DNA of 54,687 nt from a virus (Duplodnaviria > Caudoviricetes): positions 1-54,687 of the IMG/VR virus record IMGVR_UViG_3300033067_001389; one strand, written 5' to 3'. Under the pieces are notes generated by a model. It saw nothing but the letters and a program-made list of their open reading frames with translations. It had not been told where the DNA came from and ran no database searches. Both the position numbers and the translations under genes were made by a program. The first letter of the stretch is position 1, and the number at the start of each line of letters is the position of its first letter. Shown here one piece after another: positions 2,627 through 54,687 of this stretch.

Positions 2627-5600
2627 CCCTATCGACGTCGATCCGTCCCGGACGTTCGCACTCCGCAAAAAAGCGGTAGCGGATACGGACAGGCGGTTCC
2701 GCGCGCTGGAAAAGGCTATCGTCGATCTGGTTGGGAAAGAGGACGTTTTCGGGTTGGGGGGTGGGACGTCCCCAACGGGGAACAGTCGGTGGGCGTTCAC
2801 GACCACGCCCGAGAAATTGGGGCTTTTCCAGACGTGGTTATCCGGGCAGGTGTCCGCGGGGATTCTGGAAGCGAAAACTGGCCCGGACGGACCGGAGCCG
2901 TGGCAAGCGCCCTACGTCAAATCCGCCCATCAAAAGGGCGTCGCGCGGGCGTATGCGGACGCGAACAAGGCGAGTTTGAACGCTAACCCCATCGCCTATA
3001 AAGGGGGATATTCTCAATTCGTTCAAGACGCGTTTTCGTCCCCGGTGATGACGTCCAAAGTCGCGATGATTGTCCAACGGGACTACACGCAATTGAAGGG
3101 CATGACGGATGCCATGTCCCAGCAATTGGGACTGACGATGGGGGAAGCGATTTCGCGGGGTTGGGGTTCGGAAAAGACCGCGCGGGAGTTGGTCAAAAAG
3201 GTATCGATCTCGAAACAACGCGCCCGCACCATCGCCCGAACAGAAATCATCCACGCCCACGCGGAAGGGCAGTTAGATTCTTTCGAGTTGTTGGGTATCG
3301 ACGATATTGCCGTTATGGCGGAGTGGACCACGGCGGGGGACGGCGGGGTGTGTCCCCTGTGTCAACCGCTGAACGGGGCGGTCATGAAAGTTTCGGAGGC
3401 GCGGGGGCTCATCCCCCGGCATCCGAATTGCCGTTGTGCGTGGCAACCGGCGAACATCGGCGAGTCACCCGCCAAACAAATCTGGGGGAAGGATCGGAAA
3501 AAGGCGTTTGCGGATTCCGTGGCGGCAGAGGGTGCGAAGGGGGCCGACCCGGTGGAAGTGCGCGCGAAGTCTCGGTGGAAAGGCGCTGATTCTCGTCTAT
3601 CTGATAATCCCGAGGGGTCACAATATGCTGCGGTCAAATTGGGACAAGCTCAGTCGGACGCCAAGCGACTGGCGATGGCAGAAAAGGCTCTTGCAGAGCA
3701 GCAAGCCGCGGAAGCGGCGGCAGCAAAAGCCGCGGCGGATTTGCTCGAAAAGAAAACACAGACCGCTATCAATCTGGGGCTTGGGTTGGATGCTGGCGAT
3801 ATTGCGGATGATGGGATTTCTCCGAATGTGAGTGGTTACAAAAAGTGGTTTGCGGGTGTTGGATTGACGGAACAACAAATCGCGGACGCGATGCCCACCA
3901 TTCAAACATGGATCGACGCGCCCACGGGCGACATGTCGAAAACCGTGACACAGATGGTGAATTACGTCAACGCCACGAAAGCGCAGGTAAAGGCCGCGGC
4001 AGAGAAAAAAGCGTTGTTGGATAAATACGATCTGGTTGAGGCTGATCTATTTGAAGTTTCGGACGGGACCCAATCGTTCACGACGGGCAAACTGAAAAAA
4101 CTGGCGGCCGATTTTGCCTACGATGTGGAAAATGGGTCTCCGCAATATCAAAAGATGTGGGGACGTCTTTTGAATGCGGAGGACTGGAAAGCACAATTGC
4201 AGGTAATCGAATCCTCACAAGCCGCAGCGTGGGCGGCGAAACAGTCGATTGCCGAAGCGGCGAAACAGGCCAGTATTGCCACGGCGAAAAAATACGGCGT
4301 GTCTGTAGATGATTTGTTGTACGTGCCCAACGAAAAAGCATACGTGGTCAGTTCAACGATGTTGCAAGATATGGCGACGTCCCAAGGGGTGGCGCTGGAT
4401 TCCGATTTGTTTAACGCGCTTGTTTTGGAGCCCATCGACGTGGTCGATGCTGGGTTGACGGCGGCGAAGGCGAAAATCATCGCGGTACAAAAAGCGACCG
4501 CGGAAGCCGCACAACAGGTGGCGGAGGCCGCTACGAAATCGGTTTCGACCAAGGTGGCGGACGAGTTCACGGCGGCGAAATTGAAGTTCTACAAATACAA
4601 AGGCGCGGGCATCACGTCGAAAGGGACGTTGAACAAACCCGCCCTGACGGCGGTGGTGAAAGGCCAGAATTTGGGGACGGATTTTGAGGAATCGGAAGCG
4701 CTGAAAAAAGCACTCAAAACAGCCACCAACGCAACCGAACAGGTGATGGCGGTGGAAAAGGCGGCGATTGATTGGGCGTCGACGCAAGGCGTCACCAACC
4801 CGGTTCCCGCGGCGGTTGTGGTTGAGGCGGTTCGTCCCGCGGGCGCGCCCGATCCCACCAAGTTGACTTTCGTCCGCTCGCTCCCCGGTTCGACGCGTCC
4901 CAATTTGATGCGCGACGAGTCGACCGGGAAGTTGTGGGTCGTCAAGTCGGGATTGAATCCCGAACATCTGAAATCGGAGGCGCTGGCGGACGACCTCTAT
5001 CGAATCATGGGGGCGAAAGTTCCGGCGTCCGGGATCATCGAGACGCGAGACGGTCCATTAAAATACGCGGAATTCATTCCGGATGGACAGACATTGGACA
5101 AGGTGACGAAAGCCGAATTCAACGCGGTCCGGGAAGAGTTGAAAAAACACTTCGTCGCGGATGCGTTGTTGAGCAATTACGACGTGGCCGGGTTGAGTCT
5201 CGACAATATCTACGTGGCGGGCGGTGTGGGATACCGCATCGATAATGGCGGTGCGATGTTGTTCCGCGCGCAGGGCGGGGCGAAGGCGTTCGGGGTGGAA
5301 GTGACCGAACTGAAAACGTTGCTGGACCCCAAAATCAACGCATCAACAGCAAAGGTGTTCGCGGGAATTTCTGATGATGAAATTCGAACACAAGTCGATG
5401 CTATTGTGTTGAAGCGGGAGCGAATTTTGTCCGCCATCCCGGATACCGATCTGCGGGACAAGATGGCGAAGCGTATCGACTGGTTGCAGGACACGTACGG
5501 GACCAAAGTCGTGGAGGCCCCGCGCCCGGCGCTGGGGAAGCGCGCCGCGGCGTACACGGTGGACGAGAAGACGGTCGAACGGATTCGCGACGCGCGGGCG

Positions 5601-10236: not shown

Positions 10237-11190
10237 ATGGCGGCTACAATGGATGCGAATCGGCTCACCCGTTCGCCGAACCGAATTGACCTCGACTTGC
10301 GGGGCGGGAAGCGTATTTGGGAAGGACGCGCCACGGGCGCAATCCGTCCCGGTATGCTCGTGGAAACCGTCACCCCGACCACGTGTCGCGCGTCGACGCA
10401 AAAAGGCGGACAGGTGGAACGCCTGATCTGCGACATCAATCCTCATCTCGGTATGGGGTACGTTGACGATTGGGACGCCGCTTTCGCGTCCGGCGATTTC
10501 TTGCAGGCTATCAACGCGCTGCCCGGCGACCGTCTCCGTCTCCGTCTGGCGGATGGCGTCGTCGTCGCCGCGAACGATGTCCTGATTCCGGACGGTGCCG
10601 GTTCGTTCCGCCCCGCGTCGACGTTGATCACGAACGGCCCTTTGGCGGTGCTGACGGCGGCATCCACCAACCTGACGAACACGACCACGCGAACGGTGTT
10701 CGACCGGAATTACAGCATCCCGGCGAACGCGTTGCAGGTGGGCGACGTGTTGCGTGTTCGCGGACAGGTGCGAGCGCCGACCACGAACAGCACGGATACG
10801 CTTCTGCTGGACGTGTCTGTGGGCGGAACGGCGCTGGTTGCCGGTCTGGCCGTGGACGTGGCTGATAACGACGTCGGCATCGTCGATGTTGAAATCGCGG
10901 TCCGTTCCATCGGGGCGTCTGGTTCGCTGTTCGCGTCGGGCATGATTGGGCTCGGTCCCGTGGCTTCCGCCACGATGCGTCCCGTTGCCAACAGCGGGAC
11001 GCGGGACACGACCGGCGCGCTGGTTGTGGGCATTGCCGGGACGTGGTCGGTTGCTTCCGCTTCCGACATCTGCGCTCTCCAAATGCTGACCGTCGAATTG
11101 CTCCGCCCCCTTTTCCCGTTCGCGCGGGCGGAAGAAGCGGTCGACAACAGCCTGAACGCAAACTACTACTGCACGGCGCGCGTCGCCTAG
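10237..11190 (+). CDS. capsid decoration/cement protein with inserted beta-rich domain
   Basis: Lies between protease and major capsid genes; A.GAI.PG.LV and D.L..DG.G motifs of decoration proteins. Confidence 0.6.
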   Translation: MAATMDANRLTRSPNRIDLDLRGGKRIWEGRATGAIRPGMLVETVTPTTCRASTQKGGQVERLICDINPHLGMGYVDDWDAAFASGDFLQAINALPGDRLRLRLADGVVVAANDVLIPDGAGSFRPASTLITNGPLAVLTAASTNLTNTTTRTVFDRNYSIPANALQVGDVLRVRGQVRAPTTNSTDTLLLDVSVGGTALVAGLAVDVADNDVGIVDVEIAVRSIGASGSLFASGMIGLGPVASATMRPVANSGTRDTTGALVVGIAGTWSVASASDICALQMLTVELLRPLFPFARAEEAVDNSLNANYYCTARVA

Positions 11191-14114: not shown

Positions 14115-14753
14115 GTGTCGCAAATTTACGTTGTATCACACACTTTTCGTTCTGGTGGAACCGCGGTCGCCGCGGTGCTCCACAATTGCGGCGTTCCGTT
14201 TTTCCCAAGCATTCAAAAAGCTATCAACGGAAACGCCCCCGACGAATGGAATCCCGGCGGTCACTATGCCGATGCTGATTTTCACGCCCTGATGGTGCGT
14301 CTCCAGATTTATGGGATGCGGCGTCCCTCCGAAACGTGGGTTCCGGACGCGTCGGTCCGGGCCGAAATCGCCGCGCTGGTGCAGGAGCGGTCGGTCGCCC
14401 CGAAGTGGGGAATCAAAGGCGCGCATTCGTGGGTCGCGGCGCGCGTTCTGTTTGGGTTGGGCTATAACGTCCGCGTGATTGGGACGTCCCGCCCCCTGTC
14501 CCAATCGCAAGCGTCCTACACGGACCGCATCGGGGAGGCCTACAAAGAGGAGGCCGCGGCGTTTGTGGCCGACTCGAAAGCGATGACCGACGCGTTTTAC
14601 GCGAGTTTCGCGGGTCCGAAAATGCTTGTCGATTTTGATTCGCTTTTTGACGCCACCCGCGAAACAGTGGAATCCATCGCAGCGTTTGCAGGCGTCGACG
14701 TCACGCCCGCGGCCATCGCGTCGGTAAACCCCAATTACCGGAGATACGCATAA
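14115..14753 (+). CDS. sulfotransferase-family (P-loop) protein
   Basis: RSGGT (cf. RSGTS 5'-PSB loop)...L...G...NPGGHY.D...WGIK...R; GTG start after GGGGGT (ORF open from 14064). Confidence 0.6.
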   Translation: MSQIYVVSHTFRSGGTAVAAVLHNCGVPFFPSIQKAINGNAPDEWNPGGHYADADFHALMVRLQIYGMRRPSETWVPDASVRAEIAALVQERSVAPKWGIKGAHSWVAARVLFGLGYNVRVIGTSRPLSQSQASYTDRIGEAYKEEAAAFVADSKAMTDAFYASFAGPKMLVDFDSLFDATRETVESIAAFAGVDVTPAAIASVNPNYRRYA

Positions 14754-51144: not shown

Positions 51145-51507
51145 TTACTTCAACGCGGCTTCCAGCGTCTCCAGACGTCCGGACAGGGACGCGACCGCGG
51201 TCTCCAGTGCCTCAATCCTTTGCAGGAGCATCGGGTATCGCGCCCGCGCGACGCTTTGCGGGGAATGCCCCCCTTTGTATGCCGTGATGCCGGAATCCAG
51301 CAGCGCTTGCCGAAGACGCTTCGGCGTCAGTGCCGGAAACCCGATTTTCTCGGCGTACTCGGCGCGCTTCGCTTCAATCGTGAACTTGCGGGCGGTCCAG
51401 TCCGTTTCGTCCGCGGCAATCAGGCGGATGAGTTGCGCGACTTGGTTGGTCTTCATTTTTTCGTAAGGGCGGACGGCGCGCGGTTGTGGTTGTGGTTTGT
51501 TTGACAT
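51145..51507 (-). CDS. hypothetical protein with C-terminal coiled coil
   Basis: GGGGGT RBS; LLQRIEALETAVASLSGRLETLE zipper. Confidence 0.6.
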   Translation of the reverse strand: MSNKPQPQPRAVRPYEKMKTNQVAQLIRLIAADETDWTARKFTIEAKRAEYAEKIGFPALTPKRLRQALLDSGITAYKGGHSPQSVARARYPMLLQRIEALETAVASLSGRLETLEAALK

Positions 51508-51533: not shown

Positions 51534-51564
51534 AAAAAAGGGCCGGGAGACAATCCCCCGGCCC
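51534..51564 (-). terminator. intrinsic terminator after the DUF932 gene
   Basis: GGGCCGGG/CCCGGCCC stem followed by T6 on the - strand. Confidence 0.75.
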
Positions 51565-51580: not shown

Positions 51581-52609
51581 TTACGATGCCAGCATCTTCA
51601 CGGCTCGCATCAGCGCCCGGTGGGTGACGTCCGCCCGCTCTCCGAACAGCGTGGACTCGGTCCGCGACAATCGCGCCGCATCGGAGTTCTTTTCGCGGGT
51701 GGGCTTGTCGTGCTGCGCCCACCCAGTGAACGCGTTGAACGCGTTCCACGCCGTGGTCCCCGCCAATTCCTTTTCCCGCTCGAACCGCATGAACATGGCG
51801 GCCATCGCTGATTGCGCCCGGATGATTTTCCCTTCATCGTGGCCGTTTTTCGCTTCCAGCGGGATATCGCCCACCTCTTCCACGTAACACGATGCCCAGA
51901 ACGCTTTGAGCGCTTCACTGTTGACATCCCGCGCCCCCAGCGTGTCCAGAATCTGCCGGGTTCCCGACAGCGCCTCTTGATAGAGGCCCAACGCCTTCCG
52001 CGCCTGATCGATGCGGTCCGCGGAGTGTTTGGTGTGCCGGATGGCACAACCCGCCGTCCGGACCCGGCCGTTGCCGATACCGTCGGGAATCACCATGTGA
52101 AGGGTATTCGAACAAACCACCCGGACCGACGTCGGGATACAACGCATCGGGGTCCACCCGTCGTGGCCATTGCTGACAAGAATATACGGGGCGACTTCAT
52201 CCTCTTTGCGAACGGAGAACGATTCCCCGCGGAGGAGGAACCACACTTTCGCCCGGTTGCGGATGGTTCCCGCGGTCTCGCATTTGACCACGTCGCCCTC
52301 TTTGGCGAGCGCTTCGCAGAAATCCGCCAATTCGTCGTTCTGGACGGGGACGTATCCCCGCCCGACGATGCCCAGCAGTTCCCGCGGCGCGTCATCGTAA
52401 TAGAGACCCACCTTGTCGCCGATGATGTCGCCCATCGAACCATCATCGTTCACGGGTGCCAGTTCGCGTTTCACGACTTTCGCCCCGCCCCCGATGTATT
52501 CCAACCCCTGTCGCGGGGTGAACGTCTCGGGCAGGACAACCCCGAGACCGTGCCAAGCGCCGGTACGGGAGAGAACAACGTTATCGCGGGCTTCGATTTC
52601 GTGGGCCAT
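51581..52609 (-). CDS. DUF932 family protein (TIGR03299-like)
   Basis: AWHGLG, Y.PVQN, ETAG, NGHDG, RVVCSNTL, IRHT and GTTAWNAFNAFT motifs. Confidence 0.85.
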   Translation of the reverse strand: MAHEIEARDNVVLSRTGAWHGLGVVLPETFTPRQGLEYIGGGAKVVKRELAPVNDDGSMGDIIGDKVGLYYDDAPRELLGIVGRGYVPVQNDELADFCEALAKEGDVVKCETAGTIRNRAKVWFLLRGESFSVRKEDEVAPYILVSNGHDGWTPMRCIPTSVRVVCSNTLHMVIPDGIGNGRVRTAGCAIRHTKHSADRIDQARKALGLYQEALSGTRQILDTLGARDVNSEALKAFWASCYVEEVGDIPLEAKNGHDEGKIIRAQSAMAAMFMRFEREKELAGTTAWNAFNAFTGWAQHDKPTREKNSDAARLSRTESTLFGERADVTHRALMRAVKMLAS

Positions 52610-52659
52610 CTGTCTGTTCCTTGTTTTTGGTGTTGTTGGTAACCGCGTCTGATGGGTGA

Positions 52660-52688
52660 TTTATACGTTGTTGGTAAATCATCGTCAA
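52660..52688 (-). promoter_or_regulatory. early promoter TTGACG-N17-TATAAA with TACCAACAAC boxes
   Basis: Boxes at 52667-52676 (spacer) and 52632-52641 (leader). Confidence 0.8.
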
Positions 52689-52718
52689 GCGACATTACCA
52701 ACATTTTGAAAAATCAGT

Positions 52719-53288
52719 TCACTTCGTCCGAATCGGGACAATCACCGTTCCCGGACAAAACAGGTTGCTCGTGTGCCCTTCGTCTCGACGGCGTCGGAAC
52801 CACTCTGCGCGGGACGTTACCGGGATCATTTGAGCACGCCCCACCAAACCGCGGGCGAACAGGGCGGTCACCGTGTTGACGGAAAACCGCGTGATGCCGA
52901 TGGCGCTATGTGAATCGGCCGGGTTCCCGACTGCGTATTTGCGGTCTTCGGGACGAAAAAAGACGAACGACTCGGGACCCGCCAGTTCCTTGACGATGTC
53001 AGACATCAGGCGAGACAGTTTCGGGGTTTTTTGTTCGACGGTCTCCGCGGCGACGTCGACTCGACCACCGCCGTACGCGATGGTCAGGGCGGTGTCGACT
53101 TGGCGCTTTTCGCCCGCGGTCAAGGGCCGGTCCAGTGTCGACACCATTTCAAGGGCCGACATCATGGCGGGGGCCGCGGCGAACATGTGAGCAATTTCGA
53201 TAGAGGGCATCGCGGAGCGGAAGTCGTCAATCAGAACATGCGCTCCGTAGCGGTCTTTTCCGGCTTCGATGCAGATGATTTCGGGCAT
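52719..53288 (-). CDS. hypothetical early protein downstream of the hammerhead
   Basis: AAAGG RBS; A..FAAAP.M..AL motif common in phage early proteins. Confidence 0.6.
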   Translation of the reverse strand: MPEIICIEAGKDRYGAHVLIDDFRSAMPSIEIAHMFAAAPAMMSALEMVSTLDRPLTAGEKRQVDTALTIAYGGGRVDVAAETVEQKTPKLSRLMSDIVKELAGPESFVFFRPEDRKYAVGNPADSHSAIGITRFSVNTVTALFARGLVGRAQMIPVTSRAEWFRRRRDEGHTSNLFCPGTVIVPIRTK

Positions 53289-53318
53289 TGCAGGACCTTT
53301 CGTGGTTGGTGGTGGATT

Positions 53319-53366
53319 CCCGGACGCCTTGCGGCGTTTCGTCCCTTCCGGGGACTCATCAGCGGG
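53319..53366 (-). ncRNA. type I hammerhead ribozyme
   Basis: - strand reads CCCG CUGAUGA GUCCC-CGGAA-GGGAC GAAA CGCC-GCAA-GGCG UC CGGG: all core nucleotides, three paired stems, GUC cleavage triplet. Confidence 0.93.
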
Positions 53367-53624
53367 TTATTCCTTGACGTAGTCCAGACGGTCCCCGGAA
53401 CCGGCCGGACAGTTGGCGCGGCACTCTTCGCAAATCGCCTTATCACCGTCGAACCGGGTCGGGTCGATAACCGCCGACGTATACGACCCGTCGGGCATCT
53501 TCGTTGAACGACAGTTGCAACGGCCCGAGTTGGAGCGATGCCCGTCGTAACAATCGCACCGCGCCGACCACGCGGGGCCGCGGAAGATGACGATTTTCGG
53601 ATTGGCGGGGATGACGTGAGCCAT
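53367..53624 (-). CDS. small Cys-rich hypothetical early protein
   Basis: CDC...RCNC...CEEC..C; AAAGGA RBS; stop codon abuts the ribozyme. Confidence 0.6.
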   Translation of the reverse strand: MAHVIPANPKIVIFRGPAWSARCDCYDGHRSNSGRCNCRSTKMPDGSYTSAVIDPTRFDGDKAICEECRANCPAGSGDRLDYVKE

Positions 53625-53710
53625 GATTTGAGTTCCTTTGTTTGAAGTTCGAAAACGTTATCGGCAATCCGGGGGCGTCCCCAAAATCGGGGACGCCCAT
53701 ACACCCGAAA

Positions 53711-53878
53711 CTAGACGGCGGCTTCCAACTGGATGGAGACGACCCGCGCCTTTTTGGCGAGGTAGTACTGGACCATCTGACGGCGGGCGTTGTGTTCGTC
53801 CGGAGCCTTGACGCCGCGGCGAGCGGTGCGGGTGTTGCCGTTCAGTTCAGTCGTGACGACGAAAACGAAGTTAGTCAT
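53711..53878 (-). CDS. small hypothetical early protein
   Basis: ATG 53878 after AAAAAGGAACCC, first gene after promoter 53925-53953. Confidence 0.6.
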   Translation of the reverse strand: MTNFVFVVTTELNGNTRTARRGVKAPDEHNARRQMVQYYLAKKARVVSIQLEAAV

Positions 53879-53924
53879 GGTTCGGGTTCCTTTTTGGTGT
53901 TGTTGGTAAACTTGCGACAGGTGA

Positions 53925-53953
53925 TTTATACGTTGTTGGTAAACCGGTGTCAA
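53925..53953 (-). promoter_or_regulatory. early promoter TTGACA-N17-TATAAA with TACCAACAAC boxes
   Basis: Boxes at 53932-53941 and 53899-53908. Confidence 0.8.
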
Positions 53954-53972
53954 GCGAATTCCAAAAGATTTT

Positions 53973-54188
53973 TCAGATTGTGGCAACCGGTTCCATGCTG
54001 ATAACCCGCATGTCGATGTTCGCCGTGGTTTGGGCGGGGTTGATTCCCGTCTTGAGGTGTTTCGCCAGTTTCGCTTTGGCGGCGTCGATGCTCTCCGCGA
54101 TAACCTGATGGGTTCCGCGCTTGGTGATGAACTGGCCAGAGGCGTTTGCGAGTCGGCAGCGGCTGACGATGAAGTAGGCGGTCATCAT
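53973..54188 (-). CDS. small hypothetical early protein
   Basis: AAAAGGGAACCC RBS, after promoter 54238-54266. Confidence 0.6.
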   Translation of the reverse strand: MMTAYFIVSRCRLANASGQFITKRGTHQVIAESIDAAKAKLAKHLKTGINPAQTTANIDMRVISMEPVATI

Positions 54189-54237
54189 GGTTTGGGTTCC
54201 CTTTTCGCTGTTGTTGGTAAACGTGTCTGATGGTGTA

Positions 54238-54266
54238 TTTATCGGTTATTGATAAACCGGCGTCAA
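54238..54266 (-). promoter_or_regulatory. early promoter TTGACG-N17-GATAAA
   Basis: Variant box TATCAATAAC in the spacer and TACCAACAAC at 54210-54219. Confidence 0.75.
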
Positions 54267-54419
54267 GTCCATTCGGGAAAAATCTGAAAACATTTCCAGA
54301 TTATTTTCGACATCCCCCGGACTCCCCCCGTCCCGACCTTGCGTTTCGCGACGTCTCGCGTGTTATATTGCCAACAAATCACGGCATTTTTCGACGAATT
54401 TTCAGGCGGGGCGAAATCG

Positions 54420-54687
54420 ATGCGATGGAATGATGATTTCTGGTATCGAATCCCGGACTTAGTCGCGTCCGGAATGTCGAAAAATGCGGTTGCGGCAGCG
54501 CTGGGGACGACCGCGAAAACCGTCACAAAATGGGTGCAGTCGCGACCAATTTTGGCGAAGCGCGTGAAAGAAATTCGCGCTCAGCGCGCCGAAAAAGGTG
54601 TCGAGACGTTTTTCGAATATGTCCACAAAACACTACCGCCCGAACTGGTCCCGATCTGGAATCAAATCGTCAGCAGCGGTAACGACC
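54420..54687 (+). CDS. N-terminal HTH protein, probable terminase small subunit (truncated by the window end)
   Basis: MRWNDDFWYRIPDLVASGMSKNAVAAALGTTAKTVTKW... HTH; divergent from early genes; extended -10 TGnTATATT at 54361-54369. Confidence 0.55.
   Translation, partial: MRWNDDFWYRIPDLVASGMSKNAVAAALGTTAKTVTKWVQSRPILAKRVKEIRAQRAEKGVETFFEYVHKTLPPELVPIWNQIVSSGND

Follow-up and report, generated by a model that had tools for sequence, protein, structure and literature searches.

A type I hammerhead ribozyme motif between two genes of a putative leftward operon in an uncultured Caudoviricetes phage

In the right half of an uncultured phage genome, a 78-nt spacer on the - strand separates two co-oriented open reading frames (ORFs) of 85 aa and 189 aa. 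The question raised by this locus is whether the spacer contains a hammerhead ribozyme, as the first-pass annotation had proposed from the letters alone, and what self-cleavage at this position would mean for the genes on either side. The genome is represented by an IMG/VR virus record that was analysed along its whole length of 54,687 bases (hereafter, the window), and which is linear and estimated to be 74% complete. Structural genes occupy the + strand of its left half and a long leftward block its right half. The portal protein is only ~24% identical to that of any named phage, and no tRNA genes were found in the window.

Anatomy of the motif and its genomic setting

Read on the - strand of the 54,687-nt window, the hammerhead matched the earlier description base for base, and consists of the following parts:

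53369-53367, - strand: TAA stop of the 85-aa ORF, directly 5' of stem I with no spacer
53366-53363, - strand: stem I 5' strand, CCCG (sequence reading and covariance model R1, see below)
53362-53356, - strand: conserved core C3-A9, CUGAUGA (sequence, core scan and model R1)
53355-53351, 53350-53346 and 53345-53341, - strand: stem II, GUCCC, loop CGGAA and GGGAC
53340-53338, - strand: core G12 A13 A14, GAA (sequence reading)
53337-53333, 53332-53329 and 53328-53324, - strand: stem III, ACGCC (A15.1 first), GCAA tetraloop and GGCGU (U16.1 last)
53323, - strand: C17, with the predicted scissile bond at 53323|53322 by the hammerhead numbering quoted from Perreault et al. 2011
53322-53319, - strand: stem I 3' strand, CGGG, which would form the first four nt of the 5'-OH product

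Stems I, II and III measure 4, 5 and 5 bp, respectively (stem III including A15.1-U16.1), and all 14 stem pairs are Watson-Crick. The pairs adjacent to the core are standard (G53363-C53322 in stem I, G53355-C53341 in stem II and A53337-U53324 in stem III). The consensus rule given in the text of Perreault et al. (2011, PLoS Comput Biol 7:e1002031; PMC3088659) comprises C3 U4 G5 A6 N7 G8 A9 G12 A13 A14 A15 U16 H17 and no core-adjacent mispair, and the window hammerhead agrees with it at every core position. The topology is that of type I, with loops CGGAA and GCAA closing stems II and III and both ends leaving through stem I. The minimum free energy (MFE) fold of the isolated 48-nt element is the hammerhead secondary structure (-19.2 kcal/mol). 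By every sequence and structure criterion testable here, the element is a hammerhead, and an ordinary, well-formed member of type I. Cleavage is predicted 3' of C17 and would leave 34 nt (53322-53289) ahead of the ATG at 53288; the same bond and distance had been given in the first-pass annotation, and our own reading of the sequence arrives at both.

A scan for the core, stem II and GAAA on both strands of the window returned a single match, which was the hammerhead site. A permissive descriptor of the complete motif (minimum stem lengths 4/3/4 bp), run on both strands of 300 windows simulated from a first-order Markov model, gave 1 match per 300 simulated windows, compared with 1 in the real window (stems of 4/5/5 bp), and a still looser descriptor gave 4 matches in 300 simulated windows. 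We also built a covariance model (R1) from a seed of six type I hammerheads found on other viral contigs, leaving the window out. R1 scored the window hammerhead at 64.5 bits (rough E 4.2e-19, full model coverage), compared with 66.8-79.1 bits for the seed members, while the next-best match in the window reached at most 12.8 bits and had no core. The second-rank R1 matches at 10955-11007, 51409-51429 and 14283-14325 were rejected because they are without the hammerhead core.

The surroundings of the motif contain the following features:

54238..54266, - strand: promoter-like unit TTGACG, 17 nt, GATAAA, near-identical to the unit at 53925..53953 (a repeat family)
53925..53953, - strand: promoter-like unit TTGACA, 17 nt, TATAAA, read by eye; likely start of the hammerhead transcript
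53698-53673: GC-rich hairpin between small ORFs and the 85-aa ORF
53367..53624, - strand: upstream ORF, 85 aa, Cys-rich, its TAA adjoining stem I
53296..53301, - strand: putative Shine-Dalgarno (SD)-like GAAAGG, 7 nt ahead of the downstream ATG, predicted from sequence
52719..53288, - strand: downstream ORF, 189 aa, of which the N-terminal ~70 aa resemble small proteins of 79-99 aa
51581-52609, - strand: DUF932 gene, downstream in the same putative operon
51540..51564, - strand: strong terminator-like hairpin (11-bp stem, then T6) downstream of the DUF932 gene, where the operon probably ends

These features suggest an operon in the order small ORFs, GC-rich hairpin, 85-aa ORF, hammerhead, 189-aa ORF, DUF932 gene and terminator. 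The designation of the flanking genes as early is plausible, given the promoter-like units upstream and the terminator-like hairpin after the DUF932 gene. Both sigma-70-like promoter units lie 560-900 nt upstream of the hammerhead on the same strand. A consensus promoter and terminator scan listed neither promoter-like unit, and nothing at the hammerhead itself.

Searches of the flanking ORFs against Pfam and PHROG gave no match except DUF932/phrog_1221 and an SNF2 helicase further downstream. A homologue search with the 189-aa protein recovered only the protein itself, and an exhaustive HMMER search recovered 10 weak relatives besides the query. Nine of these are proteins of 79-99 aa that match residues ~6-73, in none of which Pfam found a family above threshold, and one is a 951-aa protein that matches residues 157-183. 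A single hammerhead copy is present within the 54,687 bases; many relatives have several. The phage may still carry further copies, because the record is estimated to be 74% complete and the operon leaves it 1.3 kb upstream.

Relatives in other genomes and the reach of the Rfam models

A search pattern consisting of the window core, stem II and GAAAC, with the loop left free, matched 21 viral contigs, as well as 13 contigs belonging to prokaryotic genomes or MAGs of widely differing phyla. With a cut-off of E <=1, R1 returned 39 matches across the 21 viral loci, 38 of them at E <=3.3e-5 and some with other stem II sequences, and 18 matches in the 13 prokaryotic genome loci. Under a strict parse, 36 of the 38 strong viral matches were complete type I hammerheads; in the two exceptions, stem III is irregular (the copy of phage tf, L007) or the core is a variant (L004:977-1036). 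With the window added, the parsed set numbers 37 copies, among which stem I occurs in 17 sequence versions and stem III in 18; stem I is 3-4 bp long in 14 of 33 distinct copies.

Covariation was examined in an alignment of the 39 model matches from the 21 viral loci (A4; 33 distinct rows, window excluded). In this alignment, 95.7% of cells were paired, compared with 73.7% in shuffles and 29-48% in slid controls in which the partners were moved by 1-3 columns. Changes on both sides were found for 11 of 15 pairs, and compensatory changes occurred in all three stems. The alignment leans towards the structure because it was fitted to the model; the margin is nevertheless large. Two MAFFT alignments (A1 and A2) misaligned the 3' halves of the hammerheads and were left out of the counting. 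The base-for-base reading, the R1 score of 64.5 bits and this covariation all uphold the earlier claim of a complete type I hammerhead, including its stems, core, strand and intergenic position. Anatomy, family membership and conservation at the level of the class are direct observations.

In 7 of the 21 viral loci, 2-4 hammerhead copies are situated between successive small genes. The same module is found in the named Pseudomonas phages tf, UFV-P2, SCYZ1 and BroderSalsa, where it is of type I with the same stem II as in the window and likewise has an early-region position, in these phages ~2.7-3.3 kb from the genome end. The similarity of these phages to the window is confined to the ribozyme (<=57% of the 61-nt query covered, 88-90% identity), and they are otherwise unrelated to it. 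The UFV-P2 hammerhead fills an unannotated gap between gp09 and gp10, within a block of small early-region genes.

Searches for an orthologous locus found none among named phages (blastn of 52600-54687), none in viral contigs with the 189-aa, 85-aa and DUF932 proteins or with a 6-sequence alignment of the 189-aa N-terminal domain, and none in metagenome contigs with the 189-aa protein. A near-identical contig from run X1 differs from the window at 8 positions in 1001 nt, none within the motif, and is uninformative on conservation. Contigs from runs X2-X4 span only parts of the hammerhead stretch.

The position of the motif relative to its neighbours was counted across 34 distinct copies including the window (ORFs of at least 40 aa). 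In 26 of the 34, an upstream ORF ends in the interval from 30 nt ahead of stem I to 3 nt within it, and in 33 an ORF starts 4-54 nt past the cleavage site. Stop codon and stem I are -3 to +2 nt apart in 20 of the 34 copies and directly adjoining (a gap of exactly 0) in 13, although 8 of these 13 come from two related contigs (L016 and L020).

Rfam 15 returned 0 matches over the entire window at gathering thresholds. E-value mode on positions 53200-53500 gave only sub-threshold matches, of which the best, to Hammerhead_3 (RF00008; clan CL00010), scored 29.3 bits against a gathering threshold of 48.5 and was in the wrong (type III) permutation. This alignment, which uses an upstream GUC, was rejected for its mispaired stems. 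A match to RAGATH-1 (RF03152) scored 17.3 bits against a gathering threshold of 56.3, and was aligned in the type I permutation with the 5' hairpin positions deleted. The Rfam families Hammerhead_1/3/II (CL00010) and RAGATH-1 have the catalytic core in common with the window element. In the RAGATH-1 pseudoknot hammerhead, whose solved structure is described in the text of PMC11300833, helix II is replaced by a pseudoknot to a 5' stem-loop, whereas the window element lacks a 5' hairpin and has a regular stem II of 5 bp. An identity with RAGATH-1, or with a pseudoknot-replaced helix II, was rejected on the score (17.3 vs 56.3 bits) and the presence of a regular stem II.

At gathering thresholds, Rfam also detected none of the 29 R1-positive relatives in 14 of the 21 viral loci. 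Because all 29 tested relatives were missed too, the failure reflects the reach of the models and cut-offs rather than the motif. Infernal with the Rfam hammerhead models, which the first-pass annotation had put forward as a check, hence proved a misleading negative, with sub-gathering scores for the window and the 29 relatives likewise missed. With the window copy and 29 relatives all below threshold, pipelines that rely on Rfam thresholds leave such phage ribozymes unannotated, and a small dedicated covariance model detects them cleanly.

Tertiary contact, competing folds and rival readings

Fast hammerhead cleavage at low Mg2+ depends on a tertiary contact that joins the stem I side to the stem II side. 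In the relatives, loop II shows complementarity to the tail that immediately follows stem I on its 3' side, as in the following loop II:tail pairings:

L015: UUGCUA:UAGCAA
L018: GCGGA:UCCGC
L019: CGGUU:AACCG
L011: GUGAU:AUCAC
L014: GGGC:GCCC
L009: UGGC:GCCA

The longest Watson-Crick run between loop II and tail had a mean of 3.12, compared with 2.42 +/- 0.12 for tails of other contigs, and 0 of 5000 permutations reached the observed mean. Runs of at least 4 bp occurred in 11 of 33 copies against 2.8 expected; because some copies are related, the independent pairing events are fewer than 11, with about nine different pairing sequences among them. The text of Perreault et al. 2011 (PMC3088659) puts pseudoknots in ~40% of hammerheads, across all three types.

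For the window, the candidate tail segment is UCC (53314..53316, - strand), 2 nt after stem I, which could pair with either GGA of loop II (53349-53347) or, across an internal loop, GGA upstream of stem I (53373-53371). The earlier suggestion that stem I extends through GGA/UCC is borne out insofar as both segments exist (53373-53371 and 53316-53314), but the loop II GGA:UCC pairing is equally good at 3 bp each, and the extension has no preference over it. A run of 3 bp is reached by 42% of unrelated loop/tail pairs, and loop II of the window attains it with 9 of 32 foreign tails as well, compared with a 5-bp loop II:tail pairing in UFV-P2 (GUGAU:AUCAC). The data favour a loop II:3'-tail pseudoknot as the contact at the level of the class; in the window, it is a 3-bp candidate that is not significant alone.

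Longer RNAs are predicted to fold differently from the isolated element. In 76-nt or 101-nt context, the MFE structure swaps stem I for a predicted helix between CGUCA (53379-53375, - strand), which comprises the last codons of the 85-aa ORF, and core UGAUG (53361-53357, - strand). The context MFE is -30.2 kcal/mol, compared with -27.3 kcal/mol when the hammerhead is enforced (a gap of 2.9 kcal/mol). This competing fold is only a hint that translating the 85-aa ORF may affect folding, because core and tertiary energies lie outside the energy model. The MFE structure of the 101-nt RNA also pairs GGACU (53385-53381) with GGUCC (53297-53293), overlapping the SD-like site.

How far do these results leave room for other explanations? 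It is scarcely credible that the motif is a chance resemblance, or a type III hammerhead that cuts after the upstream GUC at 53378-53376. The best Rfam match is indeed to Hammerhead_3 (RF00008; 29.3 bits, E 1.7e-4 on the 301-nt stretch), but in that alignment stems I and III contain many non-standard pairs, and its score stays below the gathering threshold of 48.5, whereas the type I reading pairs every stem, scores 64.5 bits with R1, and is shared by 36 of 36 parsable relatives. Chance is ruled out by the R1 score and the descriptor counts in simulated windows. We also consider it very unlikely that the element is a decaying or parked hammerhead descendant, inactive or too slow in cells and with no effect on expression. 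Its stem I is minimal at 4 bp, the candidate tertiary contact is at best 3 bp and not significant, and the longer RNA is predicted to prefer a different fold, all of which would fit such a descendant. Nonetheless, a fully consensus core and 14/14 Watson-Crick stem pairs are unexpected for a decaying copy, a short stem I (3-4 bp) is common among the relatives (14 of 33 distinct copies), and the R1 score puts the window copy on par with the seed members (64.5 vs 66.8-79.1 bits).

A further explanation, which we regard as unlikely, is that the ribozyme is active but serves chiefly as a translation-gated switch and not to alter the chemistry of the RNA ends, with termination on the upstream ORF or the competing helix deciding whether the core folds. 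Because the stop codon adjoins stem I, termination would place the ribosome over stem I and the core. The gap of 0 in the window, with -3 to +2 in 20 of 34 distinct copies, is consistent with such gating, as are three L017 copies whose stop codon and stem I share 1 to 3 nt, although short spacers are the rule in phage genomes, so that the abutment may just be compaction, and two related contigs contribute 8 of the 13 zero-gap cases. The competing CGUCA/UGAUG helix draws on coding sequence, and the GGACU/GGUCC helix of the 101-nt MFE structure overlaps the downstream SD-like site, but these long-range helices are predicted from a single sequence. In L016 and L020 (and L023 by sequence identity), the stem I 3' strand is GGGAG, which is SD-like and lies 9-12 nt before an ATG; in the window, by contrast, the SD-like site is outside stem I. 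Literature searches on this theme in open-access text brought up no paper that describes translation coupling, stop-codon abutment or an SD-like stem I for natural phage hammerheads. If gating were to apply, scission and release of the leader or SD region would report the translational status of the upstream gene, and a ribozyme class of elusive role would have a concrete, testable function.

Proposed processing of the operon and comparison with known systems

The window element is, in our assessment, probably a genuine and selection-maintained type I hammerhead, most likely active, that carries out protein-free processing between genes of the leftward operon. We infer cleavage of the window copy, its transcript and an effect on expression from the sequence, and envisage the following course. 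The leftward operon would be transcribed, presumably from the sigma-70-like promoters at ~53.95 and 54.26 kb, and the transcript would fold as three stems about the consensus core and cut itself 3' of C17 (53323|53322). Almost all of the ribozyme would stay on the upstream product, where it would form a structured 3' terminus that bears a 2',3'-cyclic phosphate. The downstream product, which spans the 189-aa gene, the DUF932 gene and the terminator, would have its 5'-OH end 34 nt ahead of the ATG, and its 34-nt leader would open with four nt of the former stem I and carry the SD-like GAAAGG. Such processing would probably serve to make mRNA stability and translation of the upstream genes independent of those of the downstream genes.

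In Bacillus, RNase J1 degrades the 5'-OH glmS product, while in E. coli, 5'-OH ends escape the 5'-monophosphate-stimulated RNase E pathway. Stabilisation of the downstream mRNA by its 5'-OH end, which the first-pass annotation had proposed, is a weaker suggestion than was made there, and depends on the RNases of the host. In the text of a review (PMC6765202), glmS is the sole well-understood bacterial precedent, and there destabilisation follows ribozyme cleavage. The same review describes the roles of bacterial and phage ribozymes as "largely elusive". Processing of phage transcripts is the standing, unproven hypothesis in the texts of both Perreault et al. 2011 (PMC3088659) and the review (PMC6765202).

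The closest known systems are the hammerheads of prophages and phages reported by Perreault et al. 2011 (PMC3088659), which, according to the text of that article, lie between genes, often in several copies, and flank single genes or short blocks "on many occasions". Three tandem arrangements are reported there to cleave in vitro and one (the A. tumefaciens triple) in vivo, and the proposed role is the cutting of long phage transcripts into single-gene or operon-length mRNAs. The window element resembles the set described in that text in having a consensus core and in being DNA-encoded on the coding strand between co-oriented phage genes. It differs in belonging to an uncultured phage without a close relative in the searched collections, with one copy in the sequenced part, and in having flanking genes of unassigned function rather than ardA. 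Type I hammerheads are the usual ones in bacterial and phage DNA genomes, as stated in the text of PMC13725137. Hammerheads of eukaryotic RNA viruses, as described in the published text, are also of type I, with a long helix III, and are located just before ORFs; a resemblance to bacterial and phage type I hammerheads was noted by their authors, who proposed a role in translation initiation and reported no conserved loop-loop contacts. The window hammerhead, in contrast, belongs to a DNA phage and lies between bacterial-type cistrons.

Hence, the window element is a further member of a group of phage ribozymes known from publications since 2011, for which the biological role is as yet hypothetical. 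The present results go slightly beyond the literature text, in that Rfam thresholds miss a subclass with an open stem I of 4-6 bp, in which stop-codon abutment recurs and, in some relatives, stem I is SD-like; such elements may, however, already be depicted in Figures 2-3 and S4-S6 of Perreault et al. 2011. In the recurrent design, the element begins at the stop codon with a short, open stem I, of which one strand is in some cases SD-like; loop II can often form a pseudoknot with the 3' tail, and cleavage falls 10-50 nt ahead of the following start codon. This design bears on how ribozyme cleavage and translation interact in the early operons of phages.

Promoter-like units and hairpins of the inferred operon

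Upstream of the 85-aa ORF and the hammerhead lie two almost identical promoter-like units. A similar leader and then a small ORF follow each one, and a divergent ORF adjoins the units. Each unit carries two copies of a 13-nt word, GTTTACCAACAAC (- strand), one within the -35/-10 spacer and the other directly downstream; the spacer copy of the second unit (54238-54266) has two positions changed. These copies are putative operators to which a phage repressor would bind. The features of this region are as follows:

53925-53953, - strand, sigma-70-like promoter unit (TTGACA, 17 nt, TATAAA)
54238-54266, - strand, sigma-70-like promoter unit (TTGACG, 17 nt, GATAAA)
53899-53911, 53932-53944, 54210-54222 and 54245-54257, - strand, copies of the 13-nt word
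54339-54686, + strand, divergent ORF, open at its end
53673-53698, - strand, GC-rich hairpin of 10 bp (GGGCGUCCCC / GAUUUU / GGGGACGCCC)
51581-52609, - strand, gene whose protein matches DUF932 (E 1e-40) and phrog_1221 (E 2e-47)
51564-51540, - strand, strong terminator-like hairpin after the DUF932 gene

The GC-rich hairpin sits between the 85-aa ORF and a small ORF with its end at 53711. No U tract follows it on the - strand, which rules out a canonical intrinsic terminator; the hairpin may serve to stabilise RNA or as a site of processing. We infer that the DUF932 / phrog_1221 gene is the final gene of the hammerhead-containing operon.

Related contigs with four hammerheads each

Each of three related contigs has four type I hammerheads, which lie between consecutive small genes; a Blastocatellia MAG is the bin of one of these contigs. 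The stretches are:

L016, 9597-11458
L020, 6606-8246
L023, 323-1963

In all three, the 3' strand of stem I reads GGGAG and lies 9-12 nt upstream of each ATG, which would place a Shine-Dalgarno-like sequence inside stem I until the predicted cleavage.

The module in other genomes

Three further contigs from sequencing run X3 were at least 80% alike to positions 53311-53362 of the window at the hammerhead only, with differing flanks, indicating that further genomes in this sample set carry the same ribozyme module. At gathering thresholds, Rfam 15 reported none of the 29 hammerheads found with R1 (the covariance model built from six other viral type I hammerheads) in 14 of the 21 viral loci (L002-L020); its sole match in those 14 loci was a tRNA in L017. 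The module was also located in two named phages:

Pseudomonas phage UFV-P2 (L036), record 3276-3367, unannotated gap between gp09 and gp10
Phage tf, record 2692-2728, under a 'hypothetical protein' annotation

The UFV-P2 stretch examined around the module has no annotated ribozyme feature, and 'hypothetical protein' is the sole annotation under the phage tf match.
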